A stretch of DNA of 64,000 nt from Candidatus Latescibacterota bacterium (GCA_963667175.2 CAXXXF010000017.1:43256-107255), one strand, 5' to 3'; positions 36,424 through 61,383 are shown, numbered from the stretch's first letter. Notes: generated from the sequence alone by a model not told the origin. Program-made: numbers and translations.

Positions 36424-36700
36424 GACGCTTGAAACAGGGGACCATGGACATAGCCGGACAGACCGGATAAAAGCATGCGAACAAAAAAGCGGTTCAACGG
36501 CGAAAGTCACGCCGATCAGATCGGGAGTCGCTGCTGAGGAAGAGACACGATCAACTCATACGGTTTTTCCTGTACATTCTTTAGTGGTCCTGGTTTGCCC
36601 CTTTTGTGTTCTTTGTGCCTTTTGTGGCTTTCGTAGATTTTCGTGTTTTATCCTGTTCATCCTGTCCATCCATGTTGGTTAATTTCTGATAAGACATCAA

Positions 36701-39229
36701 ATGAACGAAGCAGCGGCGAGGATCAAGATCAACAAACTGCTCGAGGCGGCGGGGTGGCGGTTCTTCGATGATGAAGGCAAGCCCGCCAACGTTCGCGTCG
36801 AAGCGAGCGTCAAGCTGAAGAAAGCCGACCTGGACGCATTGGGCGAAGACTTCGAGAACGCGACGGGACACATAGACTTCCTCCTCCTTGACGCAAAAGG
36901 CTTCCCGCTCATCGTCCTGGAGGCCAAGTCGGAGGACAAGAACCCGCTGGTGGGCAAGGAACAGGCGCGGAAGTACGCCCGCTCTCAGAACTGCCGCTTC
37001 GTTATCCTGTCAAACGGCAATCTGCATTACTTCTGGGACCTCGAGAGAGGCAATCCGTACCTCATCACCTCGTTCCCCACGCCGGACTCCGTTACCAACT
37101 ACAACAAAGTCCGGCCCAACCCCCAGCGCCTGGTCGATGAGCCCGTCAGCGAGGATTACATCGTACTCACCCTGCGGCCGAATTATGCCTCGGAAGCGGC
37201 GTGGACAAACGAGGCTGAACGCCCCGCTTTCATCAAATCCAACAAACTGAGTTTCCTGCGCCCCTACCAGCTCCGGGCCGTTCATGCGCTTCAGCGTGCG
37301 GTAAAGGACGGGAAGGACCGGTTCCTGTTCGAGATGGCCACCGGAACGGGCAAGACCCTTGTCTCAGCCGCGGTGATCAAGCTCTTTCTGCGCTCCGGCA
37401 ATGCCTCCCGCGCGCTGTTTCTCGTCGACCGGCTGGAACTCGAGGAGCAGGCGCGGAAGGTCTTCACCGCCCTGCTTTCGGCGGACTTCCAGACGGTGAT
37501 CTACAAGGAACGGCGCGACGACTGGCGGTCCGCCGAAATCGTCGTCACGACGGTCCAGTCGCTGCTGTTCAATAACAAGTACCAGTCGCTTTTCTCCCCC
37601 ACCGACTTCGACCTCGTCATCTCCGACGAAGCGCACCGGTCCATCGGCGGCAACGCCCGGTCCGTGTTCGACTATTTCGTCGGGTACAAACTGGGCCTGA
37701 CCGCGACCCCCCGGGACTATCTGAAGGGATTCGACGATTCCCGCCCGACCACGCGGGACCCGCGCGAAGCCGAACGCCGTTTGCTCCTGGACACCTACCG
37801 CACCTTCGGGTGTGAAAGCGGGCAGCCCACGTTCAAGTACTCCCTGCTCGACGGCGTGAAGGACGGCTATCTGATCAACCCGACGGTCGTGGACGCGCGA
37901 ACGAAAGTGACCACGGAGTTACTTTCGGAACAGGGATTTGTCGTCTCCTTTACGGACGATGAGGGAGAAGAACAGGAAGAGGCCTACAAAAAGCGTGAGT
38001 TCGAGAAGCGATTCTACTCCGACGCGACCAACCAGCTGTTCTGTAAGACTTTTCTTGAGAACGCGATCCGGGATCCGGTCAGCGGAGAAATCGGCAAGTC
38101 CATTATCTTCGCCGTCAGTCAGAAGCACGCGGCAAGATTGACTCAGATCCTCAACGCAATAGCCCACATGATGTTTCCGGACAGATACCAGTCGGACTTT
38201 GCCGTGCAGGTCACGTCGCAGATCACGGATGCCCAACAGTTTACCGTGAATTTCAGCAACAACAACCTGCTCGGTTCCGGCAACTTCCTCCCTGAGTATC
38301 TGACGAGCAAATCGAGGGTCTGCGTCACGGTCGGCATGATGACCACGGGGTACGATTGCACGGATATTCTGAACCTGGGTCTGTTCCGCCCGATCTTCTC
38401 GCCCACCGACTTCATCCAGATCAAGGGGAGAGGCACAAGGAAGCATAACTTCCTCGAACAGTCGCTTAATCCGGCGATCGCGGAACGCGTAGACGAGCCC
38501 GATAAGACCGCGTTCAAACTGTTCGACTTCTTTGCCAATTGCGAATACTTCGAAGCGGAGTTTAACTACGACGAAGTGTTGGGATTGCCTGTCTTCAAAG
38601 ACGCCCATGAACGAGAGGACTCGGAATCACAGAGTGCGGACGTGGGTACGTATGAGTACCTGGGGAGAGACATCCTGTCGACCATCAAGGTCGAGGCCGT
38701 CGGTGAGGAAGGGATGAAGATCGACCGGATGTTCTTCGAGAAATTCGAGGATGCCGTCCGGAAGGACGACGTCATTGCGCAGGCCGTTGAGGCGGGGCAG
38801 TGGGACCGGGTCATCGACTACGTCAACCGGGAAGTCTTCGACCGGCCCGAGGAGTTTTACACGCTCGAAAAGCTGCGCAAAGCAGCGGCCGTGGACCGGC
38901 GGATCACCCTTCGGGAGATTCTGGAGAAGGTGTTCGGGCTGATCCCCCGATTCAAATCCAAGGACGAAATGCTGGAAGAGGAATTCGGGAAGTTCGTGGC
39001 CGACTACACCCCCGAACAGGTCGATGCCATCCCCGCGATCAAGAATTACTTCAAGGCGTACGTCACCAGCGACCAGATCCGCCACATCATCGAAAACCGG
39101 GACTACACCGGCCTGGCCACCAACCCCGTACTCTCAATGAAGGACCTTGGCGCCGTACCGGAGAAATACCGCAAACTCGTCCCCGAATACGTTAAGGACT
39201 ACGTCCCGCTAAATCAATTCGCCGCGTAG
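36701..39229 (+). CDS. hsdR: Type I restriction enzyme R subunit (EcoAI/EcoEI-like)
   Basis: N-terminal ID..LEAK nuclease; MATGTGKT, DEAH, GLTATP, MTTGYD, QIKGRGTR. Confidence 0.9.
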   Translation: MNEAAARIKINKLLEAAGWRFFDDEGKPANVRVEASVKLKKADLDALGEDFENATGHIDFLLLDAKGFPLIVLEAKSEDKNPLVGKEQARKYARSQNCRFVILSNGNLHYFWDLERGNPYLITSFPTPDSVTNYNKVRPNPQRLVDEPVSEDYIVLTLRPNYASEAAWTNEAERPAFIKSNKLSFLRPYQLRAVHALQRAVKDGKDRFLFEMATGTGKTLVSAAVIKLFLRSGNASRALFLVDRLELEEQARKVFTALLSADFQTVIYKERRDDWRSAEIVVTTVQSLLFNNKYQSLFSPTDFDLVISDEAHRSIGGNARSVFDYFVGYKLGLTATPRDYLKGFDDSRPTTRDPREAERRLLLDTYRTFGCESGQPTFKYSLLDGVKDGYLINPTVVDARTKVTTELLSEQGFVVSFTDDEGEEQEEAYKKREFEKRFYSDATNQLFCKTFLENAIRDPVSGEIGKSIIFAVSQKHAARLTQILNAIAHMMFPDRYQSDFAVQVTSQITDAQQFTVNFSNNNLLGSGNFLPEYLTSKSRVCVTVGMMTTGYDCTDILNLGLFRPIFSPTDFIQIKGRGTRKHNFLEQSLNPAIAERVDEPDKTAFKLFDFFANCEYFEAEFNYDEVLGLPVFKDAHEREDSESQSADVGTYEYLGRDILSTIKVEAVGEEGMKIDRMFFEKFEDAVRKDDVIAQAVEAGQWDRVIDYVNREVFDRPEEFYTLEKLRKAAAVDRRITLREILEKVFGLIPRFKSKDEMLEEEFGKFVADYTPEQVDAIPAIKNYFKAYVTSDQIRHIIENRDYTGLATNPVLSMKDLGAVPEKYRKLVPEYVKDYVPLNQFAA

Positions 39230-39257
39230 AATCTTTAATACAAAGAGCCGGAACTTA

Positions 39258-40015
<758 letters not shown>

Positions 40016-40666
40016 CATGGATGAACAGGATGGACAGGATAAAACCAAAAGGCACGAAAAAACGAACTTCAGAAACTACGAAACACGCGAAAAAGCGCGA
40101 AAAATGCACGAGAAAAAACCGAAAAGCACGACAAAGGCGCGAGAAAACGAGGAACGGCTGGGAATCGATTCACCATAGAACGCGGGTCATCACTCCGCCC
40201 ACCCCGAAACCCCAGCGTTTGCCGGCCAGCCCGACTCCGGATTCTTAATGGATTTCGTTACATTTTCCGCTGATGTTATTGAAAATCAACCGATTATATA
40301 ACAAATCCACCTGTTTTCATGGATAATTCGAGATAAACCTCAACTTTTTTCTCAAATACAAAAAAAATCCCACGAGCCGAAACCCGTGGGGCCTGCAATA
40401 AGACATTATAGTCGATTTGCAAGAGCCAATAAAACATCCAGACAAACACAATATACATTGAAAATCACATGAAAACAAGACTCTTTCTCAACGAAGTTCT
40501 GCATTCTCGAACCGTCAATTACAAGGCAGTGTTCAGCAACAAGCTCCGGATGATGAATACAACTGCAGCGGCTGGAATCGTTGATGCGTTGGCTGAACCC
40601 GATGTTTTTGGTCCAGTGCTTTTATCCTGTTCATCTTGTCCATCCATGTAAGTTTGAGGTTTTTCG

Positions 40667-43252
40667 ATGTTAGACGCTGAAACGAAACGCCGTATAGATA
40701 CTGCCCGCGATATCCTGGTCGGGAAGGTGCCGGATCCCAAGAGTCAGGTGGAGCAGATCACCATCGCGTTGATCTACAAGTTCATGGACGACATGGACGC
40801 CGTGAGCGAGGAACTCGGCGGCACGCGGAGGTTCTTCGCCGGCGAGTTCGCCCGGTTCGGATGGCCGAAGCTGATGCGCTCCGGTCTGGGCGGACATGAG
40901 ATGCTCAACGTCTACGCCGAAGCCATCGACCGCATGCCCGAGAACCCCGGTATTCCGCCGCTTTTCAGGGACATCTTCAACAACGCGTATCTCCCCTATC
41001 GCGACCCGGAAACGCTCCGCGCCTTTTTGAAGGTCATCGACGAGTTTACGTACGACCACAGCGAGCGCCTCGGCGACGCCTTCGAGTACCTGCTCTCGGT
41101 CCTGGGTTCGCAGGGCGACGCGGGCCAGTTCCGCACCCCGCGCCACATCATCGACTTCATCGTCGCAGTGATCGACCCGAAGAAAAACGAATCCATCCTG
41201 GACCCGGCCTGCGGCACCGCCGGGTTTCTGATTTCGTCGTACAAGCACATTGTCGAGGCCAACACCGACGACGACGGAAACAGCACGCTCACGCCCGACG
41301 AACGGGAAAAACTCACGGCAAACTTCAAGGGCTACGACATTTCACCCGACATGGTCCGCCTGTCGCTGGTGAACATGTACCTCCACGGCTTCCAGGACCC
41401 GCACATCTTCGAATACGACACCCTCACCAGCGAGGACCGATGGAACGAATACGCCGACGTGATTCTGGCCAATCCGCCGTTCATGTCGCCGAAGGGCGGA
41501 ATCCGCCCGCACAACCGCTTTTCCGTGAAATCCAAACGTAGCGAAGTGCTGTTCGTGGACTACATGGCCGAACACCTCACACCATCCGGCCGGGCCGGGA
41601 TCATCGTTCCTGAGGGCATCATCTTCCAGAGCCAGAACGCCCACAAACAGCTTCGCAAGATGCTTGTCGAGGAGTATCTGATCGCCGTCGCCTCCCTCCC
41701 CGCGGGCGTCTTCAATCCCTACTCCGGCGTCAAGACATCCATCCTCATCCTCGACAAAGCCCTGGCGAAAAGAACCGACAGCATCGCCTTCTTCAAGGTA
41801 GAAAACGACGGCTTCGACCTTGGCGCCCAGCGCAGAACGATCGACCAGAACGACCTCCTGCGGACCCAGCAGGCTGTGAAGGAATACATGGGCAATGTTG
41901 GAAACATGGATGGACCTGTCTGCCGTGCCGGGCACGGCACAGGCAGGCAGGATGGGCAGGATAAAGGCGAACCACCCCCCGCCGCCGATCAGTCAATCCT
42001 GGAGCAACTCATTCAGCAAGGGACCGCCCTCATCGCAAAAAAAGACAAGATCGCGGAGAACGGGGAATACAACCTGAGTGGGGAGAGGTATAGGGAATAC
42101 AGAACCAACGATACAAAATACGCCTGGGTAAACCTTGGCGAAATTATCTTGGGCAAACCGACGTACGGTTCCGGGGCACGCAAAGTTACATACGATAACA
42201 AAGTACGATATGTGCGGATAACTGACATCACAGACGACGGAGAACTCCGTTCAAACGATTCAGTTTCGCCTTCACTAATCGAGCCAGACCTCTTCTTGAA
42301 ACCTGGTGACCTGCTTATCGCACGCTCGGGCTCCGTTGGACGTACCTACATGCACGGAAATCAGCAAGGAAATTATCAATACGCTGGTTACTTGATTCGT
42401 TTCCGTATCGATCCGACTAAAGCCGTTCCTGAATTTGTTTATCACGTAACCAAGTCAGAGACGTGGCGCGAATGGATAGACAGTAACTCGAAGACGGGCA
42501 CGCTTACCAATATTAACGCGAGACAGTATTCGAGCTTCAGTTTTCCCCTACCGCCTCTGGATGTGCAGCGGGAAATTGTGGAGGAGATTGAGGGGTATCA
42601 GCGGGTGATCAATGGCGCGCGCGCAGTCATCGAAAACTACCGGCCGCATATCCCCATCGACCCCGACTGGCCGATGGTGCATGTAGGTTCGCTTGCAAAT
42701 ATCGTCAGGGGCAGTTCTCCCCGCCCGAAGAGTGATCCGAGATATTACGGTGGTCCTATTCCACGACTCATGGTCGCGGACATAACACGAGACGGGATGT
42801 ATGCAACACCTCGACTTGACTCATTGACCATTGAAGGAGCAGTTAAAAGCCGTCCTATGAAAAAGGGGGATGTAGTTGTCACCGTGAGCGGCAATCCTGG
42901 ACTGCCAACTATTCTGGCTACGGACGCATGCATTCATGACGGATTCGTTGGACTACGCAATCTGAAGTGTGATGTGGTGCTACCTACGTTTCTCTATTAT
43001 TGCCTCCTCGCACAGCATGATCTGCATGGTACCCAATCGGTAGGTGCCGTGTTCAAGAATCTCACAACACATCAAATACGGGACTTTAGAATTCCTCTGC
43101 CTAACTGTGAAACCCAGCAAGCCATCGTCGCCGAGATTGATGCCGAACAGGCCGCAGTCGCCGCAAATCGCGAACTGTTAACACGATTCGAAAAGAAGAT
43201 TCAGGCGGCTATTGGGAGGGTGTGGGGCGAGACTAAGAAAAACGCGCAATAG
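40667..43252 (+). CDS. Fused type I methyltransferase-specificity protein (HsdM-HsdS)
   Basis: GQFRTPR, DPACGTAGF, NPPF (N6-adenine MTase) followed by two TRD/coiled-coil units (PLPPLDVQREIV; PLPNCETQQAIV). Confidence 0.88.
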   Translation: MLDAETKRRIDTARDILVGKVPDPKSQVEQITIALIYKFMDDMDAVSEELGGTRRFFAGEFARFGWPKLMRSGLGGHEMLNVYAEAIDRMPENPGIPPLFRDIFNNAYLPYRDPETLRAFLKVIDEFTYDHSERLGDAFEYLLSVLGSQGDAGQFRTPRHIIDFIVAVIDPKKNESILDPACGTAGFLISSYKHIVEANTDDDGNSTLTPDEREKLTANFKGYDISPDMVRLSLVNMYLHGFQDPHIFEYDTLTSEDRWNEYADVILANPPFMSPKGGIRPHNRFSVKSKRSEVLFVDYMAEHLTPSGRAGIIVPEGIIFQSQNAHKQLRKMLVEEYLIAVASLPAGVFNPYSGVKTSILILDKALAKRTDSIAFFKVENDGFDLGAQRRTIDQNDLLRTQQAVKEYMGNVGNMDGPVCRAGHGTGRQDGQDKGEPPPAADQSILEQLIQQGTALIAKKDKIAENGEYNLSGERYREYRTNDTKYAWVNLGEIILGKPTYGSGARKVTYDNKVRYVRITDITDDGELRSNDSVSPSLIEPDLFLKPGDLLIARSGSVGRTYMHGNQQGNYQYAGYLIRFRIDPTKAVPEFVYHVTKSETWREWIDSNSKTGTLTNINARQYSSFSFPLPPLDVQREIVEEIEGYQRVINGARAVIENYRPHIPIDPDWPMVHVGSLANIVRGSSPRPKSDPRYYGGPIPRLMVADITRDGMYATPRLDSLTIEGAVKSRPMKKGDVVVTVSGNPGLPTILATDACIHDGFVGLRNLKCDVVLPTFLYYCLLAQHDLHGTQSVGAVFKNLTTHQIRDFRIPLPNCETQQAIVAEIDAEQAAVAANRELLTRFEKKIQAAIGRVWGETKKNAQ
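41915..41947. repeat. 33-bp palindrome inserted in frame within a 9-mer repeat copy inside hsdMS
   Basis: CCTGTCTGCCGTGCCGGGCACGGCACAGGCAGG splits CATGGATGGA from CAGGATGGGCAGGATAAA. Confidence 0.75.
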
Positions 43253-43258
43253 GATGAG

Positions 43259-43981
43259 ATGATGGAAGACGCACTCGAGATGAACGAGTTTCTCCCAATT
43301 TCGTTCAAAACGATCGAAGAAGGCGAATACGTTGCTTTTCTTTGGAGTAGCTTTGAGTCGAATTTCACTCAGCGCAAATTCCAGTTCGCGTACCTGGCCT
43401 TTCACATGCTTGCGATGAGCATTGTATATTTCAAGATCTGGCAGATAAAGCACGCAAGGCCAGAGGAATTTAGAAGAGCCTTAATTGGCTTTAGTAATCA
43501 CGAAGAAAAGGACATCCTGAAGACCACCTCACCCTTTACGTTTAGCATGGTATCGGAGCGCAGAGTTTTTCGTTTTCTCAAACTCGTTGGATGTGATAAC
43601 GGCCAGATTGGAAATTACGCGAGACTTGTCGACGACCGCAATGAGATGGCACATCCGAATGGCCATATTTACGTAAAGTCACAGGACCAACTTGACGCGA
43701 AGATTAGGAATATCCTGAGGGTGATGAGTGACATTCATGCGCAATCCAAACCGATCGTCGAGTCCTGCTATGAAGAGTTTCTCTTGAGCAACTTCGACCC
43801 CGAGACCCGAGAGTACTTTGATGAGAAAGATCAGATCAGGGAAGTTCTAATCCACCATAATTACCTTTCTCCGAAGGACATTGAACTCTGCACCAGATTC
43901 AATGTCGGAGATCTGGCCAATCGGCGCGGATTTGAACATATGAAACGTCTTCACGATTGCTTACTTGCGGACTATGAATAA
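43259..43981 (+). CDS. Hypothetical protein with HEPN-like Rx4H motif
   Basis: Helical protein with RNEMAH (43637-43654); 6 bp downstream of hsdMS. Confidence 0.6.
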   Translation: MMEDALEMNEFLPISFKTIEEGEYVAFLWSSFESNFTQRKFQFAYLAFHMLAMSIVYFKIWQIKHARPEEFRRALIGFSNHEEKDILKTTSPFTFSMVSERRVFRFLKLVGCDNGQIGNYARLVDDRNEMAHPNGHIYVKSQDQLDAKIRNILRVMSDIHAQSKPIVESCYEEFLLSNFDPETREYFDEKDQIREVLIHHNYLSPKDIELCTRFNVGDLANRRGFEHMKRLHDCLLADYE

Positions 43982-44717
43982 AACGGACTGTTCACACCTC
44001 ACTGATTATCGTGCACGCCCCTGAATCAACACATACCAACAAGCCGCGGAACGTGTCAAGAGCAATGGGACGCCGAGAACGCCGACAGAGCGTTTAATTC
44101 CAGATGCGGATCCTAACTACGCAGTCATATGAGAATTGAGGGAAACAGTGTTACGCGAGATAAGGTTACGAAATTTCCGCGGGTTTGATGATCATCAGTT
44201 GCCGCTAAAGGATCTCACGGTAATCGTTGGAAAGAACAATGCAGGAAAGACAACATTGGTGGAAGCGCTCAGGCTTCTGTCCATAGTAGTATCCAGATAC
44301 CGAAATTTGACATATCGAAGACCCCCCGTTTGGACAGACTTACCGCATCGTGACTATGGTGTTGCTCCTTCTTTAAGGAATCTGGAGATAAATTTCCAAG
44401 GGATATTTCACAGGTATAATCCTCCACCAGCGATTTTGGAGGGGTTCTTCAAAAACGGCACGTCAGTTTCCATCTACGTGAATGACACACAAGAGATACA
44501 TGCTACAGTAAGGGACTCAGAAGGCAACGTCGTCCGTAGTCGGGATCAAGCAAGCAAAACTGACCTTCTAGGTGTAAGTATTATGCCTCAGGTCACGCCG
44601 CTTCAACTTACTGAAAAAGTGCTTACGCCCGAATACGTTCGAAGAGCAATGTCATCTGCATTGTCCTCATTGCATTTCGGAACGTGTCAATAGAAATGAG
44701 ACACCTCCCGTTGGGGT

Positions 44718-45731
44718 TTAGTGTAGCAGTTGTTGGCATTCGATGGTGTTCTGTGGTTGGTTAATCCAGACTTGGTCTGGAACGTGTGGTGGTCGAGGAT
44801 GCCCCTTAACAAATCGTTCAGGGTGGTTGTGATAAGCCTGATCCAGCACCGATTGTCTGGCGGCTTGCACCTGCTGTGTGAGCCCATGGTGGACGGTGTC
44901 GGGCGTGAGTAAGCCCAGTCCGCTGTGCCGGTGTTGCGTGTTGTACCAGGAAAAGAAGGTCTGTAAATAGGTACGGGCTTCTTGCGGACCGGTGAAGCGC
45001 CCGGGGTATGAAGGCGCGTATTTGAGCGTTTTGAACTGGCTTTCGGAATACGGGTTGTCATCGGAGACGCGGGGTCGAGCGTAGCTGGCCAGGATGTCGA
45101 GGTCCATCAGCAACTGCGAAAACGTCTTGGCTGTCATGGGTGCGCCGCGGTCCTGGTGCAGCGTCAGTTGTCGGGGTTGAATGCCCTGCTTGTTGCAGGC
45201 GTTGGTGATCAGGCGCTTGGCGTATGTGGCGCTTTCTCTTGTGGCGACCATCCAGGCCACGACATAGCGTGAGAACAGATCCAGTACGACGTAGAGGGGA
45301 TAGGTTTCCCACTTGCGGGTTCCTGGCAGCCGCGTGATATCCCATGTCCAGACCTGGTTGGGCGCATCCGCCATCAAGCGGGGCGGTTCCAGACGTGGAT
45401 GACGCCGCTGGTGTCGCCGCTGGGGCACCTCTCCTGCATCGTGCAGCAGACGGTACATGGTCCGGATCGAGCAGACATACCGCCCTTCCTCGAGCAGCGC
45501 GGCGTAGACTGCCGGTGGCGCCTGGTCTACGAAGCGGTCCTCGTGCAGGATGTCCAGCACGGTAGCGCGCTCGTTTTGGGAAAGCGCACGTGGCGACGAG
45601 GACCGGGCGCCACGAGGCCCGCGTTGGGCTGGCTGACGCGCACGGTAGACCGATGCCCGCGCCACACCCAGCGCCCGGCACGCGGAAGCCAACCCGACCT
45701 TCGGGGCCAGTTGTTCTGCCGCCCGTATCAT
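44718..45731 (-). CDS. IS3-family transposase OrfB (DDE integrase core)
   Basis: WTWDIT, LDLFSRYVVAW, HQDRG, DDNPYSESQFKTLK. Confidence 0.92.
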   Translation of the reverse strand: MIRAAEQLAPKVGLASACRALGVARASVYRARQPAQRGPRGARSSSPRALSQNERATVLDILHEDRFVDQAPPAVYAALLEEGRYVCSIRTMYRLLHDAGEVPQRRHQRRHPRLEPPRLMADAPNQVWTWDITRLPGTRKWETYPLYVVLDLFSRYVVAWMVATRESATYAKRLITNACNKQGIQPRQLTLHQDRGAPMTAKTFSQLLMDLDILASYARPRVSDDNPYSESQFKTLKYAPSYPGRFTGPQEARTYLQTFFSWYNTQHRHSGLGLLTPDTVHHGLTQQVQAARQSVLDQAYHNHPERFVKGHPRPPHVPDQVWINQPQNTIECQQLLH

Positions 45732-47909: not shown

Positions 47910-47939
47910 GCGTTGGGTGAGGGTCATTCCCGCCGCTGA

Positions 47940-49360: not shown

Positions 49361-49555
49361 CCCCAAAGTTCTGAGGCACGTCCATTTATTTGGATATTGA
49401 ACCCTTACAACCAATGAGACTGCGATTGATGCATTCCGTTACCATAAATTCGCGTCTCCAGCACAGTTTCCGACTGCGAACCACCACAAAACCCAGATAG
49501 AGACCTGTCGCACTCCGCTTTCTGGGGGCTCTTTGGAAAAAACAGGAGGTGTTCA

Positions 49556-50503: not shown

Positions 50504-50508
50504 AACTA

Positions 50509-50991: not shown

Positions 50992-51004
50992 ACGGGACAA
51001 GATA

Positions 51005-51907: not shown

Positions 51908-52472
51908 CAGCATGAACTCAAGTCGGGATATTCTTAAGAAACTGAGAAACAAAGCGGAATTGTGCCGTTTCTGTCACGCAGCGCTGAAGGAACGATATAG
52001 CGGTTTCCGTAGCAGCAAAGAATTCAGCGTCGTGTTGTTATCCTTGATTTCTGCCGCATTAATCGGTTTCTACTATCGACGTGTTTGGACTGGCGAACTG
52101 ATCTTGTCCCTAATTTTTCTGATACCACTCTTCACGGCCATTGTTCAAGCACTGGACAACACCGTATTCAAATGGACCGAGAAAGTGGCGCGGCACGAGT
52201 CAGCGGTAGCAATATGGGGAGATTGGATTAGAGAAGCTGACTTTCTTGAGAAGCGTATCGAGCTATATTCCATTGAAGTGATAAACGAAAAAATCCAGAA
52301 TATACAGGACAAGTACATTGTTTGTATGGGTAATACAACGCAGATACCAAATGCAAAGTTTCTGCAATTCAAAAGAAAATTCAGAATACAGGTATTGAGT
52401 TCGAAGAAGATCGATGAGATGACATTGGAGGAATTAGAGTCTTACAGTAAGACTTCAACGCAAAATGCTTAG
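51897..52472 (+). CDS. Two-TM membrane effector (SLATT-like) of CBASS
   Basis: Two adjacent hydrophobic helices with flanking H..L and A.RH positions; last gene of the operon. Confidence 0.65.
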   Translation: MQNDSMNSSRDILKKLRNKAELCRFCHAALKERYSGFRSSKEFSVVLLSLISAALIGFYYRRVWTGELILSLIFLIPLFTAIVQALDNTVFKWTEKVARHESAVAIWGDWIREADFLEKRIELYSIEVINEKIQNIQDKYIVCMGNTTQIPNAKFLQFKRKFRIQVLSSKKIDEMTLEELESYSKTSTQNA

Positions 52473-52570
52473 AAGTTTGGTCACGCTGCTTGCATAGAGG
52501 TTGTCTTTCGCCACACCATCATCGTAATATTCTATGAGCTCTACGGGCGGGAAAAACGACCCATCCAAAT

Positions 52571-53092
52571 CTAACTCCGCAGATTTGCAATTGCTTCGTC
52601 AATGGAATACGAAGGGCCGGTGCTTGGCTTATGTTCCCGATCCAAGATTAACAGGTTCCAACTTACCTCTCGAAGGAGTGCACTGCATATCCGTGCGTTC
52701 TTATCCACGATCCTGAATTTTTCGTATGTGTTGGCGTCGAGTTTACTGAGCAATCTTCCTGTAGAGGTCCAGGTTTCCGAGGGTGTTCTTTTTCCGGTTT
52801 CCTCCAGGCCAGCGATTGCTTTCTCTACATCACCGTTACGACACATCGATTTGTAATTTTTCGGATTCTGCTCAAGCGATTGCAAAAACTTACGCCAGTC
52901 AGCGATCACTTTCAAAATATGCTCGTTCGTTTCTTCAAACCCCTAGCGCATTTCTTTTAGCAGACTCTGCCGGATTTCTTCCTCCTTATCCTGTCGGAAT
53001 TCTTCCTCCATAGAGGGCTGTGACAGTTCATCCATGAATTGCCGTACTGGTCTGTATGTCGCAGACATCACATCCATCACTGCAGTGCCCAT
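52571..53092 (-). pseudogene. Hypothetical protein interrupted by an in-frame TAG at 52943-52945
   Basis: GGAG RBS, then MGTAVMD...LLKEMR-TAG-GFEETNEHILKVIADW, continuous with ORF 52571-52915. Confidence 0.6.
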
Positions 53093-53172
53093 CTCGTTTT
53101 CTCCAGAAAGATATCTGGTTGTCTTTTATTACCAGGAACAGCAAATAGTGGCCAGTGGTCAGGAAGAGCAGT

Positions 53173-53933
<761 letters not shown>

Positions 53934-54545
53934 TGTCAGCTTTCATTTATTTTCAGGAGCAGCAAATAGTCGACATCCAGATCCAACCAAAGAAGAGTGG
54001 GAGGACGTAAACAATACGGTGCTCCCCGTAATAAATATCTTTCCGAAAAAATATGCACGCGTGTCCACAATGTCAACTGTGTTTTATGCAACTGTCAACG
54101 CAAAAAATAAAAGTCGAGTCCACTCTGAAAAGTGAGATTCGTGTAATTTTCCTTCAATTTTGGTTCAGAAGCGGCAATTTTCGACAAGATCTATATCCGC
54201 ATAAACCATTATATATGATATTTTTATACCAGATATGATTTCGATTTACTTCGGAATGACACATCGTTTTAGACCTCGTCAGACGAAATTTGAGTCGTTT
54301 TCCACTCATTTCGAGAGTGTCTGCAAGAGCGTCTCAGATGAACTCAGGCTGGTTGGGGAGGCATTGTTCTAAGGATTCCCGTTACTTGCAGGTTCAGGGT
54401 TGAGCGCCTTGAAAATCGTAGAATTGAACCACCAAAAATTGGGAGTGCCCTCGAATTACTACTGGTCGCCGGCAACCGCGGACTCACTAAGCAAGTCGAT
54501 AAAGATGGCATGGAGGACGATGGATTGGGTGCGAAGGGATTTGCC

Positions 54546-55472
54546 ATGAAGAATGTCATGCAGAAAATCAACATGCTCAATGATGATGAAATTTCGAAGT
54601 TTAAAAATCCGGCCCACCGAATCATGGAGGCCAGCGAGCAGATGTTTCGCTCGTTTCACGCGAATCCCATTCAACGCGACTTCTCGTCAGAATTCGAAGC
54701 CATTGCCGCCTGGAGTACAGTTACGTGCTGTTATTCCGGCATTGAGCAGGCCCTGAAGTGCCTATTAAAGATGCAAGGTACGTTCATTGACAAGCCTGCT
54801 CGGGAGGGTGGACACCGCCATCACGATATTGGGAAGCTCTTCAAGGATCTTGCTCCTGAAGAGCAGGATGTTCTCCGCGTCTCCTATGGTATTTATCGTT
54901 CGCTGCACGATTGCATTCCCCCCGAAACCGTCGACTGCTTCCTTGACGGCATTGACAAAGGGTACACGACGTGGCGCTATTTCCTCCTTGATGGACGAAA
55001 GTCGGACGATTGGCCGACGCCCCATCCCGGTGCGATGGTAGATATCTGGTCAGCACTTTCGAATATTATTTGTGCAAGGGTATACTGCAATCACGGACTT
55101 CAAACAGTGAAACAGCGAATCGACATCCATCTGCGTGAGGAACATATCCGTGCGGAGCGTGAGTCGGACGACGAGCGAGACATCCGACACATCAACGAAA
55201 TCCTCGGCTGGCAGCAAAGGGATTGTTTCCTGGATATCAATGTCTACTCCAGTCTCCTCTATTGCCATGGGAACGGAAAACCACTCCACGTCGACCCACA
55301 GTCGGCCTCCGTACCTGAGGAACTTACCAGACTGCCTGTACTGAAAGCATTCACTCGCAATGTACGGCAACGAAAAAACGACAATGACCTTTCCCATTTT
55401 CAACACCGAGCCGAAACCAGCAGGATAGTTTGGAATTCTGCTACAGTTCGCTTCGAGACCGACTTCCATTGA
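54546..55472 (+). CDS. Hypothetical protein, HEPN-like N-terminal half
   Basis: YSGIEQALKCLL...HHDIGKLF...WRY pattern resembles HEPN ExxLK...H motifs. Confidence 0.5.
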   Translation: MKNVMQKINMLNDDEISKFKNPAHRIMEASEQMFRSFHANPIQRDFSSEFEAIAAWSTVTCCYSGIEQALKCLLKMQGTFIDKPAREGGHRHHDIGKLFKDLAPEEQDVLRVSYGIYRSLHDCIPPETVDCFLDGIDKGYTTWRYFLLDGRKSDDWPTPHPGAMVDIWSALSNIICARVYCNHGLQTVKQRIDIHLREEHIRAERESDDERDIRHINEILGWQQRDCFLDINVYSSLLYCHGNGKPLHVDPQSASVPEELTRLPVLKAFTRNVRQRKNDNDLSHFQHRAETSRIVWNSATVRFETDFH

Positions 55473-55870
55473 ATGACGTTCACCCCATATCATTCCGCTG
55501 GCAGCCTCCGATCACCATTTGGTGGATTTGAATCCGCGTCACTATTCCCGGTTTATTGTCATTATCTCATCCGTCCTGTCCATCCATGTTGATTTTGATT
55601 CGCCAATTCCACCTGAGTTCGTGTAGAGGCTCATACGTCGGTTTCGAGCAACGTGCACAATCAGCTTCCACCGCTATTGCCCTGTTGTTGTGTTTTTATC
55701 CTGTTCATCCTGTCTATCCATGTAAGTTGCTTTGCCTTTTGGTTTTGAGATATCCATGTTGACCAATGTCGGAACAAGGCCGCGACGGTTTTTTTACGTC
55801 AGTATTCTGTGCCATCGTTGAACGAAACGCGTCAGTTTGGGTGATAAGCTTAAAGCCAGGGGTGGAGGCG

Positions 55871-56914
55871 ATGTTGACACGCCTGCAGATACGAAATTTC
55901 CGCGGCTTCAATGCGCTCAAGATTGACCACTTAAATGCTATCAACCTGATTGCCGGGAAAAACAACTCTGGAAAGACAAGCCTGCTTGAAGCGATTTTTC
56001 TTCTGTCCGGAGCGGGGAATACTCAATTGGCAATGAATGACAATGGCATTCGGGACCTGGCGCCACACGGGGTTTCTACGGGCGATCCGTTCTGGAAACA
56101 GCTTTTTTTCAATCGGGATATGGGACGATCGATCGAGATTACCGCGCGTCGTTCAACACGCGATCAATTGACCCTTAAGATCACTTCGGAAAGACAGCCG
56201 ACGACCGAAATACCCCTTGACCGAACGAATGGAACGTCCACTACAAATTTCCTCAACGAGCAATTGCTCGCGTTTGAGTATACTGGACCGTCAGCGAATT
56301 CGGTAAAGAGCCAGATTCGTATGAAGGAACAGGGCTTTCAGGTAGATCAGCCTTCGACAAGTCCCCTGTTTCGGGCGATATTCCTCTCGTCTCGAAATCG
56401 GAATATCCACGAAGACGCAGTAAGATTAGGACGGTTAAGGCAGCAAAAGCAGGGAGATATGCTCTTGACGGCACTGCGGGTTTTCGAACCGAGATTGCTG
56501 AGCATTGAGGATAATGCTTATAGCGGAACGCCCATGATCTGGGGAGATATCGGGTGGTCCGAATTGGTACCATTATCCGTAATGGGCGAAGGCATGACAC
56601 AGATCGCCCGCCTTGTATTGGGTATCGCTTCCGTACCGGATGGCGTCGTTTTGGTGGATGAACTCGAAAATGGCATACACCACTCGGTACTACCTGATGT
56701 ATGGCGCGTCATCGATGAAGCGGCCAAACAGTTTCGGACTCAAATATTCGCAACCACGCACAGTCTGGAATGCGTCATTGCAGCTCATGATTCTCTCAGA
56801 AAGGACAGGTTCCGGCTACACAGGCTTGAGATTACTGAGAACACAAGCCGCTGTGTCACATACGAACCTGAATCAATCGATTCGGCAATCCGCCATAATC
56901 TCGAGGTTCGATAG
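55871..56914 (+). CDS. AAA_15/AAA_21-type ABC ATPase
   Basis: GKNNSGKT, MGEG, LVDELENGIH, QIFATTHS. Confidence 0.88.
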   Translation: MLTRLQIRNFRGFNALKIDHLNAINLIAGKNNSGKTSLLEAIFLLSGAGNTQLAMNDNGIRDLAPHGVSTGDPFWKQLFFNRDMGRSIEITARRSTRDQLTLKITSERQPTTEIPLDRTNGTSTTNFLNEQLLAFEYTGPSANSVKSQIRMKEQGFQVDQPSTSPLFRAIFLSSRNRNIHEDAVRLGRLRQQKQGDMLLTALRVFEPRLLSIEDNAYSGTPMIWGDIGWSELVPLSVMGEGMTQIARLVLGIASVPDGVVLVDELENGIHHSVLPDVWRVIDEAAKQFRTQIFATTHSLECVIAAHDSLRKDRFRLHRLEITENTSRCVTYEPESIDSAIRHNLEVR

Positions 56915-57045
56915 GAACGCCAGGACCACAAGCAATTCAGTCGGAAATCCAGCTTCTTGTAGAAGGCAATGACCATCTAGATTTTTTATGAAGCATTTGT
57001 CAAACATCCTTCTCTTTACCGTATCCGTATCTGCCCTGTTTTGTG
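56911..57045 (+). pseudogene. Truncated DUF3226/TOPRIM-like partner of the ATPase
   Basis: IGTPGPQAIQSEIQLLVEGNDHLDFYEAF then runs into a 9-mer repeat copy; ATA in place of a start codon. Confidence 0.55.
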
Positions 57046-57204
57046 GTTTTATCCTGTCCATCCTGTCTCTCCGTGTTTGATGGTCTTGAACTGCATTTTC
57101 CACGTGAGTCCGTGTCGGCGCTCAGGCGTCGGCTTCGAACAACAAGCGCATATCGGTCCATCCGTGTAAATAATCGGAAATTGCGGGATCCTGTGCGCCG
57201 TCGC

Positions 57205-57572
57205 TTCAAACATCCGTTTTACGACACCGAAAAGCCCCACACTCGCCAGGTCGAATGCGGGGCCGTTCCAAATCCGGACATGCCGGCGACTAATCCGAGA
57301 ACGCCTTGAATGCTAGCCCTGCGATAGCCAGTACCGTCGCAACCTGCAACGGTACGATCCAACGGTACAGCCCGTCGATCCTGGCTTCCAGGGACATGCG
57401 GGTCGTGTCAATCCTGGCGTCCACCGCGTCTATCTTTGTCTCCATCCGCCCCAAACGGACGTCGATCTGTTCGACCACGCCATCAAGACGGGCAATACGC
57501 CCCTCATGGTCCAGAGGATGCGGACGTTTCTGCGCTGGATTCGTCTCGGCCATCGTCTTTCATCTCCACTTG
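57205..57572. repeat. Direct repeat copy B
   Basis: Aligns with 47940-48307. Confidence 0.85.
57290..57553 (-). CDS. Small coiled-coil protein with C-terminal TM helix, copy B
   Basis: 87 aa, near-identical to 48025-48288. Confidence 0.75.
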   Translation of the reverse strand: MAETNPAQKRPHPLDHEGRIARLDGVVEQIDVRLGRMETKIDAVDARIDTTRMSLEARIDGLYRWIVPLQVATVLAIAGLAFKAFSD

Positions 57573-57707
57573 ACGATATTATATGGTCAGTTGTGAAGTC
57601 AGATTGGTCAGAGTCGTACTGTGCGGTCCAGGGTGGGAGGACTCATCGCCATAATGCGGAATAGGTAGCATTCCTCCCGCTATTTGGTTTTGTCCTGTTG
57701 ATCCTGT

Positions 57708-58037
57708 CTATCCATGTTTGCTGGTTTTGATCTCTTCCAACAGGTCGCGCAGTTCCTCGGCAATTCGAGGATCCGGCTTGCCAGCAAGCGCTTTGCTGGC
57801 TAACTGCTCTGCCAGGCGCGGCTGGTTGCAGTCCAAAGCCAGCCACCCGGCACTACGGTGTAATATCGAATAAGTTGGCTCCACCGGCTCGGACATCTCA
57901 CCAAGAGCCTTGAGCTCCAGGTTCAGGGCCTGGTCAAACAACTCCTGTGACCGCTCCCTGTTTCCCCGTCGCCGTTCTTGATCGGCCAAAAACGCGGCAT
58001 TCATGGCTTCGTCGTGGAATTTATCAACATCGCTCAT
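57708..58037 (-). CDS. Hypothetical TPR-like helical protein
   Basis: MSDVDKFHDEAM...PTYSILHRSAGWLALDC...IAEELRDLLE; stop codon supplied by a 9-mer repeat copy. Confidence 0.65.
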   Translation of the reverse strand: MSDVDKFHDEAMNAAFLADQERRRGNRERSQELFDQALNLELKALGEMSEPVEPTYSILHRSAGWLALDCNQPRLAEQLASKALAGKPDPRIAEELRDLLEEIKTSKHG

Positions 58038-58540
58038 TTTTTCTGAACCTCTGCAACCCGAGTCCCCAAATCTACGACGATAACGTACATTTGCATGATG
58101 AATGGAAGTCACTTCAAAGTCGACTGTGTAAATGACCGGTGATGTTCGATTTGGCAATGTCAGAAATAATCGCCAATCGGTACAGCACAGATGTATCTCT
58201 GATATTACGGGACAAGGGTTCGAACAACTGATTAAACCCAAATGCTGCACATAAGTATAGTATTTTTGTGGGAGATGTCAAGAGTCGATGAATGACCGGA
58301 ATCTGGCAATTTGAGCAATTTCAGTTGATCTGGTTTTGCGGGTCTGTTTTCTTTTCATCCTGCCCATCCATGTTTGTTGGTTTTGATCTGCCGCTGCGCA
58401 GTTTTGTGGCTTTCGTTGCGGTATTTCTAAGGGTCTTGACAAGAAGTCAAGCCTCTGTATATTTACGAATGAAATTTCCCCGTGTGTATTGTTTATGATT
58501 GAAAGAGATTTTTGTCTCAAAAGAGGGGTGGAGCGAAAAC

Positions 58541-59101
58541 ATGGGGACCTTAGTCCTTGATTCTTCTACGGTAATTCCTACTTTTGTAAAAGCCCCTACT
58601 GCGAAAATTGAGAAAGAGGACACGACTACATTAGATGTCGACTTAGTGGTAAAGGATCCTGTGCAAAAGGCCATACAGGATTTGCACGCAGTCGAAAAAA
58701 CTGTGGATCATCATTTGTTAATTATGTCTGAAATCGTTGAAACCTTTAATGAAGATGGAACTGGCTTTTATGCTGAGATATCTCGTTTAACGAGTACCGA
58801 TGATTTAATCGCTAATCTTGAAGAAAGTGAGCCGAAGTTATTTAAGGGTTTGGATGAAATTCACAAAGAGCAAGAAATAATAGAACAAAATGTAGTACGC
58901 GCTCCTAACCCATATAATCGAAAAATCTTAGATAAGTACATCAAGGTGGCAAGCAAGTATAAGGAATACCTAAATCTCTTTCAGGATTATAAATGGAACC
59001 TTATGATATACCAAGCCCGACACGAACATTACGCGGGTAAAGATGCAGGTTCAGATGGAACAGACTCCAGACAATCTACAAAAGACTCTGACACTACTTG
59101 A
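58541..59101 (+). CDS. Hypothetical AT-rich helical protein, candidate antitoxin
   Basis: GGAG RBS; overlaps downstream RelE-like gene. Confidence 0.55.
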   Translation: MGTLVLDSSTVIPTFVKAPTAKIEKEDTTTLDVDLVVKDPVQKAIQDLHAVEKTVDHHLLIMSEIVETFNEDGTGFYAEISRLTSTDDLIANLEESEPKLFKGLDEIHKEQEIIEQNVVRAPNPYNRKILDKYIKVASKYKEYLNLFQDYKWNLMIYQARHEHYAGKDAGSDGTDSRQSTKDSDTT

Positions 59102-59381
59102 AATAGAATATCTTCCAATTACTCTAGATTCACCAGGGAAGGCTTTTGCAAAACATCGCGATCGTCTACCCGAAGAAATGAAAGAGAGTTTAGAGGAAGT
59201 CATTCAAGAACTAAGGACGAATACGCTCAAGCCCGGTCGTAAGTTCAAAAAATTAAAAAACAAAGATGGTGACTTTTTTGAAGTTCGGTTAAACAAACAA
59301 TATAGATTTGTGTTTGAAATCTATGCTCCAGGAAAAGGAATTCATCTTGCCGTTGGGACGCATAAACAGGTAGGAACCTGA
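59043..59381 (+). CDS. RelE/ParE-superfamily toxin-like protein (start uncertain)
   Basis: FKKLKNKDGDFFEVRLNKQYRFVF...LAVGTH. Confidence 0.65.
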   Translation: MQVQMEQTPDNLQKTLTLLEIEYLPITLDSPGKAFAKHRDRLPEEMKESLEEVIQELRTNTLKPGRKFKKLKNKDGDFFEVRLNKQYRFVFEIYAPGKGIHLAVGTHKQVGT

Positions 59382-60142
59382 TAGAATTCCCGAATAAGAA
59401 AGACGCCGAAACAAACCATTCAAGGTCGCGCGCCTTTGGGCAGCCCTGGGGGAGAACTCCCCTGGGGATTATTTATTATATGATGGAAATATGACAAATA
59501 TTCCGGGGCTGTGTGAAATGTTCGCGCGCGCCGGGTAGCGGTACGACCGATGGGTGGATGAAGTACGAATGCCCGAGCCCATGCCGTTTTGGCAACAAAG
59601 CGGGACCCCCACTGTTCCGATGGTGTGGCGGCGCAAGAGAAATATCTGGATTTAGACCATAACGTATTTTGTAACGTCCGAGATTTTCTACGAAACATAC
59701 TGAAGCCATTGTCTACAGTAATGGGGAAATCAATAGGTTGAAGGTCGGGTCCGCGCATCCATTCGACTATGAGGTCTGAAGACAATCCTTGAAAAAACGT
59801 TAGTCCTGGTGCACGTTCTACACCCATGTCCACTCGGCATGGGTTCTTTATCAGGCGTAACCTTGCCCGAATTTTACTCATAAAAGGACGTCATTGCTCG
59901 GTGTTCATCCTGTCCATCCATGTTTGGTGGTTTTGATCTGCGAATTCCACATCGGTCCGTGTCGGCGCTCGAACGTCGGCTGCGGCAACTTGCACGATCA
60001 GCTTCAACCGGATTTATCCGTCTTTGGGGTTTTATCCTGTTCATCCTGTCCATCCATGTTTGTTGTTTTGTGTCGTTGAAGTTGCTTTGCCTTTTCGGTT
60101 TTGCCGTTTCCGTCTTGATCCATGTTGCGAAGGAGGCCGCGA

Positions 60143-60754
60143 ATGCCATATATCGACGTCATTCTTCCGGAGGCCGCGACGGGTTTGTTGAAGCAGCAGT
60201 ATGACGCCGCGATGGGGCGGGAAGGCCGCGTTTGGGGCATTGTCTCCGCGATGAGCCAGAACCCCCGCGCGATGAAGGCGTCGCTGGATTTCTACGGCGC
60301 ATTGATGCACGGCCCCTCCCCCTTGAGCAGGGCGCAACGAGAGATGCTCGCCGTGGTCGTCTCGGCCGCGAACCATTGCGTGTACTGAATACGCGCCCAC
60401 GCCCACGACCTCCGTGCCGAGGTCGCCGCAGAATTTGGCGTTGAAGATGACAACGAGGCCGACCGGCTGGTGCATCTGATTGCGGCCGACTGGCGCAAGG
60501 CCCCCCTCTCCCCCGCCGACCGCGCGCTGTGCGCCTTCGCGGAGAAGCTCAGCCTGGATCCGCGGGACTCGACCACCGCGGATATCGAGCGGCTGCGCAA
60601 GCACGGCTTCGACGACCGCGCCATCCACGACGCCGTCCAGATCACCGGCTTCTTCAACTACATCAACCGTGTGGCCGATGCGCTCGGCGTCGAACCGGAG
60701 ACATTCACGAAGGCATGGGAAGAAACCGGCGAAGATCCTGACAAAGGTGAATGA
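60143..60754 (+). CDS. AhpD/carboxymuconolactone decarboxylase-like peroxidase, probable selenoprotein (CxxU)
   Basis: REMLAVVVSAANHCVY-TGA-IRAH continues in frame to FFNYINRVADALG; hairpin at 60406-60425 downstream of the TGA. Confidence 0.85.
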
Positions 60755-61383
60755 AGCATGGATGCACAGGACAGGCAGGATAAAGGCAAAACAGGAGATA
60801 GCATCACAAACATACAGACGGGACACAACAGGGTGCGGTCTGCGGCTGATGACGAGACTCCGTAGTACATTACAAGCACGTTGACGCAGTGTGCGACATC
60901 GATCCCGTGAAGCGTAAATCCGGAACTGCGACGGCAGGATTAAATGATGTGCTGGCTTGACCAGGTGTTTCCGGTTTGGATGTTATCCTGTTTATCCTGT
61001 CCATCCATGTCGGCAATGGTTGGTAGCGAATGACCATCGAGAATTGATGCAGTGGAACACGGATACAGTGGAACACGGATACACAGGATAGGCAGGATAA
61101 AGGCGTAAAACCGGAAAAGGCGGTAGGAGAAACCAGGTCAGGTTGGCAGGCGAAAATATGGCAGCGACAGGAGGCAGCGCGAAAAGCTGGATTGATCGCT
61201 GGCAAGGAAGTCAATCTTTCTTGGATTTGTCGATATTATCCCGTTCATCCTGTCCATCCATGTGAAATTCTCGATTTGTCCCCGTTAGTCATACCCTGTC
61301 GTTTCATTTGACAGGATTTCTTGTTTATGTATATTATGACCATAGTCATAACTATAGTCATATATTTTACGTGGTGAGAATTC

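Follow-up and report, generated by a model that had tools for sequence, protein, structure and literature searches.

Short tandem-unit repeats with a patchy cross-phylum spread mark an integrase-less defence hotspot of a Latescibacterota bacterium and may seed recombination there

The bacterial interspersed mosaic elements (BIMEs) of Escherichia coli, the BOX elements of pneumococcus and the Correia miniature inverted-repeat transposable elements (MITEs) of Neisseria are mosaics of modules that lie near gene ends and are reputed to be recombination hot spots. Defence hotspots lacking an integrase are known between core genes, where conserved flanks enclose a variable cargo of defence and toxin-antitoxin (TA) genes, and the attC sites of integron cassettes follow the consensus of an imperfect palindrome with the R''/R' boxes RYYYAAC ... 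GTTRRRY. Passages of two papers describe repetitive extragenic palindromic (REP) units and REPINs (REP doublets forming hairpins) as short extragenic palindromic units, often arranged as inverted pairs, in tens to hundreds of copies (PMC3116915, PMC3337134), and a passage of a third describes REPINs as lineage-bound (10.1101/2022.05.22.493013). Group IIC introns, with the IIC-attC introns among them, insert after terminator stem-loops, other inverted repeats and attC sites, as stated in parts of two further papers (PMC1702495, PMC3001079). Here we describe a family of short repeats, termed arms, in a stretch of 64,000 nt from Candidatus Latescibacterota bacterium (GCA_963667175.2, CAXXXF010000017.1:43256-107255; hereafter the window, with positions counted from its first letter). 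Each arm is a series of 9-nt units, which on the T-rich strand read ATCCTGTnC, and terminates in CCATG.

It is well supported that the arms form a modular, interspersed, non-coding repeat family of the REPIN, MITE or BIME kind with a patchy spread across phyla. In the window they lie in a hypervariable locus whose homology breakpoints cluster at arms, and in several other genomes genes of the GxxExxY family are found between arms. We assign a probability of roughly 0.55 to the reading that the arms are interspersed repeats of the REPIN, MITE or BIME kind, which passively seed recombination in the hotspot, and that they do not belong to a dedicated cassette system.

Arms were counted as matches to a typed 29-mer and as matches to the core pattern CATGGAT...CAGGAT...CAGGAT, i.e. 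CATGGAT(nnnCAGGAT)2, which has 19 specified bases and was allowed up to four mismatches. The typed 29-mer gave eight matches in the 64-kb window at up to three mismatches, against none in 100 shuffles, and 14 at up to seven mismatches, every one of them within 36646-61262. The core pattern gave 15 window copies, located at 36650-61262, where 25 kb would be expected to hold 0.54 (Poisson 4e-17). Nowhere else in the genome do 25 kb hold as many copies of the core pattern, which had no copy in window positions 1-36000 and none on the remainder of the 107-kb contig C17. The original prediction, made from the window alone, had counted about 16 copies between 36.4 and 61.3 kb and none in the first 36 kb; both the confinement and the empty stretch are borne out, and the count by the core pattern is 15. 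Many window arms are degenerate (4-7 mismatches). The 15 sites are as follows.

36646..36674, minus strand: arm with 0 mismatches, left bracket of the island, ending 26 nt before the hsdR ATG (36701)
40016..40044, plus strand: arm that is the 5' exon of intron 1 and the beginning of element A; typed 29-mer match
40620..40648, minus strand: arm ending 18 nt before the hsdM-S ATG (40667)
41938..41962, plus strand: arm look-alike within the hsdM-S reading frame (methylase part), 4/19 mismatches
55560..55588, minus strand: weak arm with an 83-nt extension (family D6); 29-mer at relaxed mismatch
55694..55722, minus strand: arm upstream of the AbiLi-like ATPase gene; typed 29-mer match
57047..57075, minus strand: arm after a truncated TOPRIM-like start; 29-mer at relaxed mismatch
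57688..57716, minus strand: arm holding the TAG stop of the open reading frame (ORF) 57708-58037(-); typed 29-mer match
58344..58372, minus strand: weak arm; 29-mer at relaxed mismatch
59894..59922, minus strand: weak arm with D6 extension; 29-mer at relaxed mismatch
60030..60058, minus strand: arm with 0 mismatches, right bracket of the island, with a 32-nt exact match to the 36646 arm
60757..61009, both strands: inverted arm pair 60757+ / 60981-, which folds as a hairpin (fold z -2.5)
61074..61262, both strands: inverted arm pair 61074+ / 61234-, which folds as a hairpin (fold z -1.9)

Most placements given by the original prediction were recovered: an arm about 25 bp before hsdR (26 nt from arm end 36674 to the ATG), one 2 bp after the AhpD stop (arm 60757 begins 2 nt past the stop of the ahpD-like ORF 60470-60754), one supplying the stop of 57708-58037, and six or seven co-oriented copies at 55.5-60.1 kb, where seven arms at 55564-60058 indeed share one orientation. 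The arm said to lie about 13 bp before hsdM-S is just upstream of that gene, at a distance of 18 nt. As for a TOPRIM gene truncated at about 57045, the arm at 57047 comes after a short frame (..IQLLVEGNDHLDFL*, about 56920-56985), whose TOPRIM-like identity is a candidate label assigned from a motif. That the repeat punctuates the island holds insofar as arms are densest there; they also occur genome-wide and in other phyla, and the 13.6 kb at 41963-55563, with at least three defence systems, gave no arm by the core pattern. The look-alike at 41938-41962 is found at the same place in four relatives (G012, G007, G011 and G013) and may be due to chance or to an old insertion that is now coding. 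The left edge at 36443-36475 was tried as one arm of a pair and rejected: it resembles a degenerate arm, but no pairing with 36646-36674 was seen (z -0.64).

The locus between hicBA and an ahpD-like gene has conserved flanks and variable content in 12 of 12 congeners, and it is a hypervariable hotspot without an integrase, the last point agreeing with what had been proposed for the window. The blocks 34957-35968, 60143-60786 and 61308-62006 and beyond are kept in all 12 congeners, and the hicBA-like block 35981-36426 is whole or partial in most of them. The content between hicA and the ahpD-like gene ranges from 198-370 bp (G010, G003 and G005) up to more than 20 kb. In the window this content, with an arm at either end, is:

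36675..60058, no strand: variable island of 23.4 kb, missing from the interval between hicA and the ahpD-like gene of G010, G003 and G005

The three empty sites carry arms between hicA and the ahpD-like gene, and that of G010 is a single arm ending 45 nt before the ahpD-like ATG. Upstream of hicB, G010, G003, G005 and G001 have an arm that the window lacks; its edges are unclean. The type I system is present in four relatives, all four of which retain the arm before hsdR. G009 shares the AbiLi-like gene and the 57.7-58.4-kb module, with the restriction system and the cyclic oligonucleotide-based antiphage signalling system (CBASS) missing. Shared modules are reordered in G007 and G008, and G012 holds 11.5 kb of other cargo, which is armless. 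Nearly all junctions near the hotspot edges carry a copy of the one arm family.

Breakpoints were taken as the ends of high-scoring segment pairs between the window and a relative within 36000-61500, with matches of insertion sequences (IS) and introns dropped (n = 96). Twenty-five of the 96 ends lay within 10 nt of an arm, against a fraction of 0.093 for intergenic positions, and 47 of 96 within 50 nt, against 0.221. Both proportions are inflated by the conservation of the arm sequence itself and by the kinship of the 12 relatives. Breakpoints between orthologous loci cluster at arms, as the original prediction expected. The homology ends vary in position relative to the arm, with no one fixed nucleotide. 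The gene at 57708-58037(-) ends in an arm in the window and in G009 and has a longer, armless frame in G007, G008 and G013; the module 58527-59478 occurs without arms at an unrelated locus of G003. The two bracketing arms (36646 and 60030) share 32 nt exactly as a direct repeat, the longest match of 91 arm pairs, the runner-up pair sharing 25 nt and the median being 12. Contigs from sequencing runs (17 runs, shares up to 0.36; X1-X4) showed many joints with ends in arms, which were not used because their sides were just 18-39 nt at 90% likeness, as any repeat gives; a joint 53172->53934, which skips exactly intron 2 (sides of 18 and 25 nt), was not used either.

The proposed course of events would be as follows. 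Arms would pile up in the intergenic spacers of the hypervariable defence and TA hotspot, where direct arms, with exact matches of up to 32 nt, could serve as sites at which host homologous recombination deletes segments. Circular or incoming segments might be inserted at arms by host recombination in Campbell fashion, and every such event would leave an arm at both junctions. Recombination between arms would explain why breakpoints and truncated gene ends lie at arms and why a 32-nt repeat surrounds the island; both this recombination and the multiplication of arms are what we infer from the comparison. Host recombination is favoured over a dedicated enzyme because no nearby or co-occurring recombinase was found, because there are armless stretches and because the homology ends are scattered. 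The island would then point to a simple route by which a defence hotspot may gain, lose and reorder genes without an integrase.

The genes of the island and its flanks are:

35991..36423, plus strand: hicB-hicA-like pair, conserved left flank (named by eye from the translation)
36701..39229, plus strand: type I restriction subunit R (hsdR)
40667..43252, plus strand: type I methylase-specificity fusion (hsdM-S)
44136..47492, plus strand: AriAB/OLD-like ATPase gene, split by an IS
44678..46273, inside the AriAB/OLD-like gene: DDE (rve) IS of 1.6 kb, with at least eight further copies in the genome at 94-99% identity
48338..52472, no strand: CapP/CapH and type III CBASS (cyclase, HORMA, TRIP13, 2TM effector)
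55766..56914, plus strand: AbiLi-like ATPase
57708..58037, minus strand: small gene whose C-terminal end gives way to arm sequence (a longer version in G007, G008 and G013)
58499..59381, plus strand: two-gene module, second ORF weakly YoeB-like (armless at another locus in G003)
60122..60754, plus strand: ahpD-like or peroxidase-related gene, conserved right flank, as two ORFs here (60122-60388 and 60470-60754)

Neither hicB/hicA-like ORF had a match in Pfam or NCBIfam, and the ahpD-like gene may be a pseudogene in this genome since it is split into two ORFs. The type III CBASS at 48338-52472 looks complete, has divergent CapP/CapH regulators and has a 78%-identical copy in the same hotspot of G011. 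We also observed a 300-nt duplication (47931-48230 and 57196-57495, 81% alike) carrying an 87-aa ORF (48025-48288 and 57290-57553, both on the minus strand), one copy of which lies beside CapP/CapH and the other beside an arm.

Across the genome the core pattern was hit 59, 73 and 122 times at up to two, three and four mismatches, respectively, against 0, 0 and 3 times in the reversed genome, and once register shifts were merged 119 arms were counted. By gene calls from a crude in-house model, which called 0.80 of the genome coding, 77 of these are intergenic, five lie over a gene end and 37 are inside gene calls. The CATGG end points towards a gene start 54 times and towards a stop 28 times; within 150 nt it faces 21 starts and 20 stops. 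The median G+C content around arms (3 kb to either side) is 0.581 versus 0.603 (p 1.5e-8), and 0.587 with contig C17 excluded (p 6.7e-5). A neighbouring arm within 3 kb was found for 39% of the arms, versus 11.6% for random placement, with co-orientation in 23 of 30 neighbouring pairs (17 of 18 without this contig); merely 8 of 119 arms have an inverted partner within 700 nt. The gene content of ten other arm clusters (139 ORFs scanned) is mixed. Some contain defence or mobile genes, namely a further type I system in which an arm separates hsdM from hsdR, GmrSD accompanied by a HepT/MNT pair, and Fic together with IS110 and an intron, and others contain sucD, rpiA, TonB-ExbBD, a purF-like gene, ThrRS and GNAT genes.

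One arm copy reads TTTTATCCTGTTCATCCTGTCCATCCATG on the T-rich strand. On that strand a low-complexity tract of 60-200 nt, rich in TTTCGT, stands before many arms, and TTTGnTGGTTTTGATCT comes after the arm in several window copies. The longest form of the repeat is a composite:

40016..40335, plus strand: element A, made of arm, ACGAAA-rich tract, structured module and module B

Similar full forms of element A are present at about 20 places in the genome, and the repeat copies are mosaics of arm, tract, structured stretch and module B. Module B contains a promoter-like ATGAAA-16-TATAAT on the minus strand (40320->40293), which points through the tract and the arm. Arms did not coincide with consensus matches to sigma-70-like promoters or intrinsic terminators, and Rfam gave no family for arms or element A at gathering thresholds, nor any at E <= 10 on 40000-40700. 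The idea that the arm encodes a small ORF (MDGQDEQDK...) was rejected, as no Shine-Dalgarno-like sequence precedes it in this genome and the frame closes after 33 codons in G015. At locus L247 (126-290) of G015 the arm upstream of a GxxExxY gene has grown to about 17 tandem 9-nt units, so that the number of units in an arm appears unstable. G002 and G007 both have a 32-nt GCCTGCC-type palindrome (..cctgtctgcgtgcgtgccacacgcacaggcagg..) at the corresponding position within an arm, which is a further small repeat family contained in that of the arms.

The island contains two group II introns, which, like the rve-type IS, were absent from the original prediction:

39258..40015, minus strand: ORF-less group II intron 1, 758 nt (GTGCG...CTAC), between ..ATCCATG and TAAGTT of an arm
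53173..53933, minus strand: ORF-less group II intron 2, 761 nt, of another target lineage, inside its own ~910-nt repeat

Both have Rfam matches to D1-D4-4 and to domain V/VI. The genome holds 25 intron 5' ends, ten copies having a 463-aa reverse transcriptase frame, and the target sites fall into three groups plus one other. Seven of the 25 lie at the junction between ..ATCCTGTnCATCCATG and T(A/G)AGTT; these arm-borne introns are intron 1 of the window, two more ORF-less copies of 758 nt and four full-length ones. Two further 758-nt copies adjoin ..GTCCATG, seven ends follow ..ATTCA or a similar sequence (no fewer than four of them at the module-B edge of the same composite, so that one group uses the module B end), eight, including intron 2, adjoin ..GCTGACA inside the ~910-nt repeat, and one has a different 5' exon. 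Intron 1 has CCCATGGATCGGG in its domain I loop, and intron 2 has GATTGTCAGCCGG. Both are complementary to the 5' exon of their own intron, with exon-binding site 1 (EBS1) pairing with intron-binding site 1 (IBS1) as CATGGAT with ATCCATG in intron 1 and as TTGTCAGC with GCTGACAA in intron 2. Given this complementarity, the arm is an EBS1-IBS1 homing site and, through that pairing, the retrohoming target of one group II intron lineage, which survives by targeting a multi-copy non-coding repeat. G012, with 95% identity to the window in the conserved flank and 90-92% in hsdR and hsdM-S, has the order hsdR, 135 nt, hsdM-S, with both the intron and element A missing. Intron 2 lies in a ~910-nt unit present at six or more places in the genome at 97-99% identity, and is flanked by a 33-nt direct repeat (53122-53154 and 53943-53975, 82% alike).

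The distribution of arms was surveyed in 121 genomes of the phylum at up to two mismatches, with 0 hits of a control pattern in all. The own genus has 23-59 arms in ten of ten genomes, the counts are 13 and 1-3 in sister genera and 12 in one genome of the order, and another family carries a CAGGGAT variant in 21 and 28 copies; no arm was found in 77 of the 121 genomes, and most genomes of the same order have 0-1. With one genome per species, a degenerate 28-mer matched no fewer than 105 loci, which by their record titles represent at least 12 phylum-level groups. The titles listed comprise Nitrospirae, Latescibacterota, Burkholderiaceae, Gammaproteobacteria, Gemmatimonadota, Elusimicrobiota, Hydrogenedentes, Acidimicrobiales and lineages of Chloroflexota, Planctomycetota, Desulfobacterota, Acidobacteriota and Verrucomicrobiota. 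Five genomes of other phyla contain 118, 35, 227, 117 and 37 arms. Among the matches listed, 50 of the 112 arms from other phyla are accompanied by an inverted copy no more than 260 nt away, and the hairpin units of other phyla have loops of 1-190 nt; inverted pairs are usual there, whereas most arms of the own genus are solo, with a TTTCGT-rich tract. In a scan of 128 of 138 arm-adjacent ORFs at 66 cross-phylum loci, nearly all neighbours were housekeeping genes, often within operons (named ones are livM/livG, lptF/lptG, nrdD/nrdG, hydrogenase subunits, polA, eno and rplS), and few were defence genes. The link to defence is therefore local to the hotspots of this genus and no property of the repeat, and of the enrichment next to defence and TA genes that the original prediction expected, only the part concerning these hotspots stands. 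Viral contigs gave merely two arm matches, and 16-mers of the arm had no occurrence in literature text. Interspersed palindromic repeats are usually confined to a lineage, whereas this arm is found as essentially the same 25-28 nt in at least 12 phylum-level groups. Its patchy cross-phylum spread and its absence from most near relatives suggest horizontal spread of a very small element.

Genes of the GxxExxY family (PF13366, PDDEXK_3; TIGR04256 matched in three of three tested) were found inside arm pairs. In five arm-rich genomes arms lie on both sides of 3 of 20 GxxExxY genes, one of which forms the loop of a single hairpin. Loci L180 and L217, drawn from an unbiased sample of arm loci, have a PDDEXK_3 ORF between convergent arms 440-460 nt apart, and L227 is a third such case; counting L149, L151 and L155 as well, GxxExxY genes lie between arms in at least six lineages, to which G015 and G011 are added. 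A Terriglobia arm pair encloses an N-terminal remnant of a GxxExxY gene, whose first 37 residues align (E 7e-9) before it decays, and the ATG of the arm is in frame with this remnant as well as with the GxxExxY ORF of G011. The hsdR-hsdM-S spacer, which is occupied by element A and the intron in the window, contains a GxxExxY gene in G015, G011, G016 and G027, with an arm directly upstream in the first two. Because coding relatives carry GxxExxY genes between arms, the window copies are most plausibly derivatives that have no ORF. This genome has two GxxExxY genes (C16:152835-153179 and C4:279098-279448), both located between short inverted repeat tracts, which are ACGAAA/TTTCGT on C16, as in the arm tails, and of another family (cacaaagacac) on C4. 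Those at L249 (G027) and L248 (G016) are flanked too, the families overall being ACGAAA/TTTCGT, cacaaagacac, cacgaagg and gtgattaa, so that a set of short-period inverted repeats of its own looks like a general trait of the GxxExxY gene family. The PDB gave no sequence match for the protein, and passages on GxxExxY, PDDEXK_3, PF13366 or TIGR04256 in two papers give no function (PMC8934634, PMC3424549). GxxExxY proteins are not known to be transposases. The genes between arms would provide a testable function for this large family.

Other enzymes gave no link. The top match to the integron integrase (TIGR02249) in this genome scored 88.6 bits against a cut-off of 265, and none of its three tyrosine recombinase, three Y1_Tnp and two GxxExxY genes has an arm within 5 kb. 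In four arm-rich genomes, 0 of 12 Y1_Tnp loci had arms within 1.5 kb, and a fifth, G132, has no Y1_Tnp. An IS110 link was rejected, since just one of eight copies, all located between AAAACAG and AG, is beside an arm.

Several findings weigh against the reading preferred here. No clean pair of filled and empty sites with a target-site duplication was found, so that the arms can be called only probably mobile, and the breakpoint counts are inflated as described. RecA-type recombination would be rare at most arms, since their median longest match is 12 nt and just one arm pair of 91 reaches a 32-nt exact match. The 32-nt bracket and the seven co-oriented arms fit site-specific insertion equally well, and an arm of 25-28 nt that is identical across phyla suggests that a protein recognises it, for which a purely passive role offers no explanation. 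In the own family and order an arm lies upstream of just 2 of 22 GxxExxY genes, the others being flanked by other short-period repeat families, ACGAAA/TTTCGT tracts among them, and in the 121 phylum genomes the presence of GxxExxY genes does not match that of arms (the arm-rich G008 and G002 and both genomes of family f4 are without a GxxExxY match, and many armless genomes have one). An enzyme-driven cassette system of the kind originally predicted, in which a protein encoded elsewhere, possibly the GxxExxY nuclease, would recognise arms and move the modules they bound, would suit the perfect direct repeat round the island, the co-oriented run at 55.5-60.1 kb, the breakpoints and gene ends at arms, the conservation of the arm across phyla and the GxxExxY genes between arms in at least six lineages and in the G015 and G011 spacers. 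We nevertheless consider such a system unlikely, as no integron integrase was found in the genome, the tyrosine recombinase, Y1_Tnp and GxxExxY genes of this genome are all more than 5 kb from arms, the 13.6 kb with at least three defence systems and the 11.5 kb of cargo in G012 are armless, the module 58527-59478 occurs armless at the other G003 locus, arms of other phyla lie between housekeeping genes and inside operons, GxxExxY was not found in G008, G002 and family f4, and the homology ends vary relative to the arm. What stands of that prediction is the clustering of breakpoints at the repeats, whereas no dedicated system was shown; among its candidate enzymes GxxExxY is found inside arm pairs, while its presence does not track that of arms and RAYT (REP-associated tyrosine transposase) genes show no link.

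A related reading, to which we give a low probability, regards the arms and their sibling tracts (ACGAAA/TTTCGT, CACGAAG, GTGATTAA) as the ends of minimal selfish elements that cross phyla and have a GxxExxY nuclease as their sole gene, in analogy to REPIN-RAYT systems. If true, their ORF-less offspring would spread through intergenic DNA and seed direct repeats for the exchange of modules, by which integrase-less defence hotspots would be created and safe landing sites provided for group II introns. It seems quite improbable that the arms are neutral bystanders, i.e. selfish or decaying copies that are tolerated in the hotspot and take no part in gene gain and loss. Their location in DNA of lower G+C content (0.581 vs 0.603), the degenerate state of many window copies and the lack of arm bounds around most island systems are in line with this, but homology ends near arms are nearly threefold over the intergenic null at 10 nt, the bracketing arms are the best-matching of 91 pairs, and genes are truncated exactly at arms. 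Very improbable, in our view, is a regulatory or RNA-processing element that travels with genes as a 5' leader, insulator or RNase III hairpin under selection for expression. Such an element would agree with the arms 18-64 nt upstream of the hsdR, hsdM-S, AbiLi-like and ahpD-like genes on the same strand, with the excess of CATGG ends towards gene starts (54 vs 28), with the arm kept before hsdR in four of four relatives and with the promoter-like site in module B. It does not agree with the 21 starts versus 20 stops within 150 nt, with the lack of sigma-70-like, terminator-like and Rfam matches in arms or with arms inside truncated genes, and the 0-1 copies in most genomes of the same order are a poor fit for a conserved host function.

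Compared with the REPIN-RAYT systems, as far as the passages cited above describe them, the arms are alike in being non-coding, patchy among lineages and present as flanking copies with a small gene between them. In numbers, gene calls do not enclose 82 of the 119 arms, pairing was seen for 50 of 112 arms from other phyla (among the matches listed), and arm-rich genomes have 35-227 copies. They differ in that only 8 of 119 arms are paired in this genome, that no RAYT link exists (0 of 12 and 0 of 3 Y1_Tnp loci), that arms are 9-nt tandem units enclosing a gene for a GxxExxY PD-(D/E)XK protein, and that one arm sequence is shared by at least 12 phylum-level groups. With integron cassettes and attC sites, as described in part of PMC8876359, the arms share repeats in one orientation at gene boundaries, variable cargo and a bracket of direct repeats. 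Unlike these, the locus belongs to a genome with no IntI over cut-off (0 of 1), its arms are mostly solo and do not have the form of an imperfect palindrome with R/L boxes, genes and repeats do not come one to one (41963-55563 is armless with genes on both strands), and arms are dispersed genome-wide beside housekeeping genes; in the cross-phylum arms AA precedes 68 of 112 (giving AAC), and pairing is perfect and bulge-free in the cases read. The introns resemble group IIC introns in that a lineage lands on a multi-copy, non-coding repeat of palindrome type outside genes. They differ in choosing the target by a 7-nt EBS1-IBS1 pairing that covaries between lineages, in using mostly solo arms without a stem-loop and in being placed in D1-D4-4 by Rfam. 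As in BIME, BOX and Correia elements, arms occur in variable combinations of modules, extragenic and close to gene ends, and they share with MITEs the terminal inverted repeats around a short non-coding core (the cross-phylum hairpins and two window units), but their sequence and host range are different and neither a target-site duplication nor a DDE transposase partner was found. Finally, the locus matches integrase-less defence hotspots in its conserved flanks and variable cargo, and is set apart from them by a single repeat family at nearly every edge junction.

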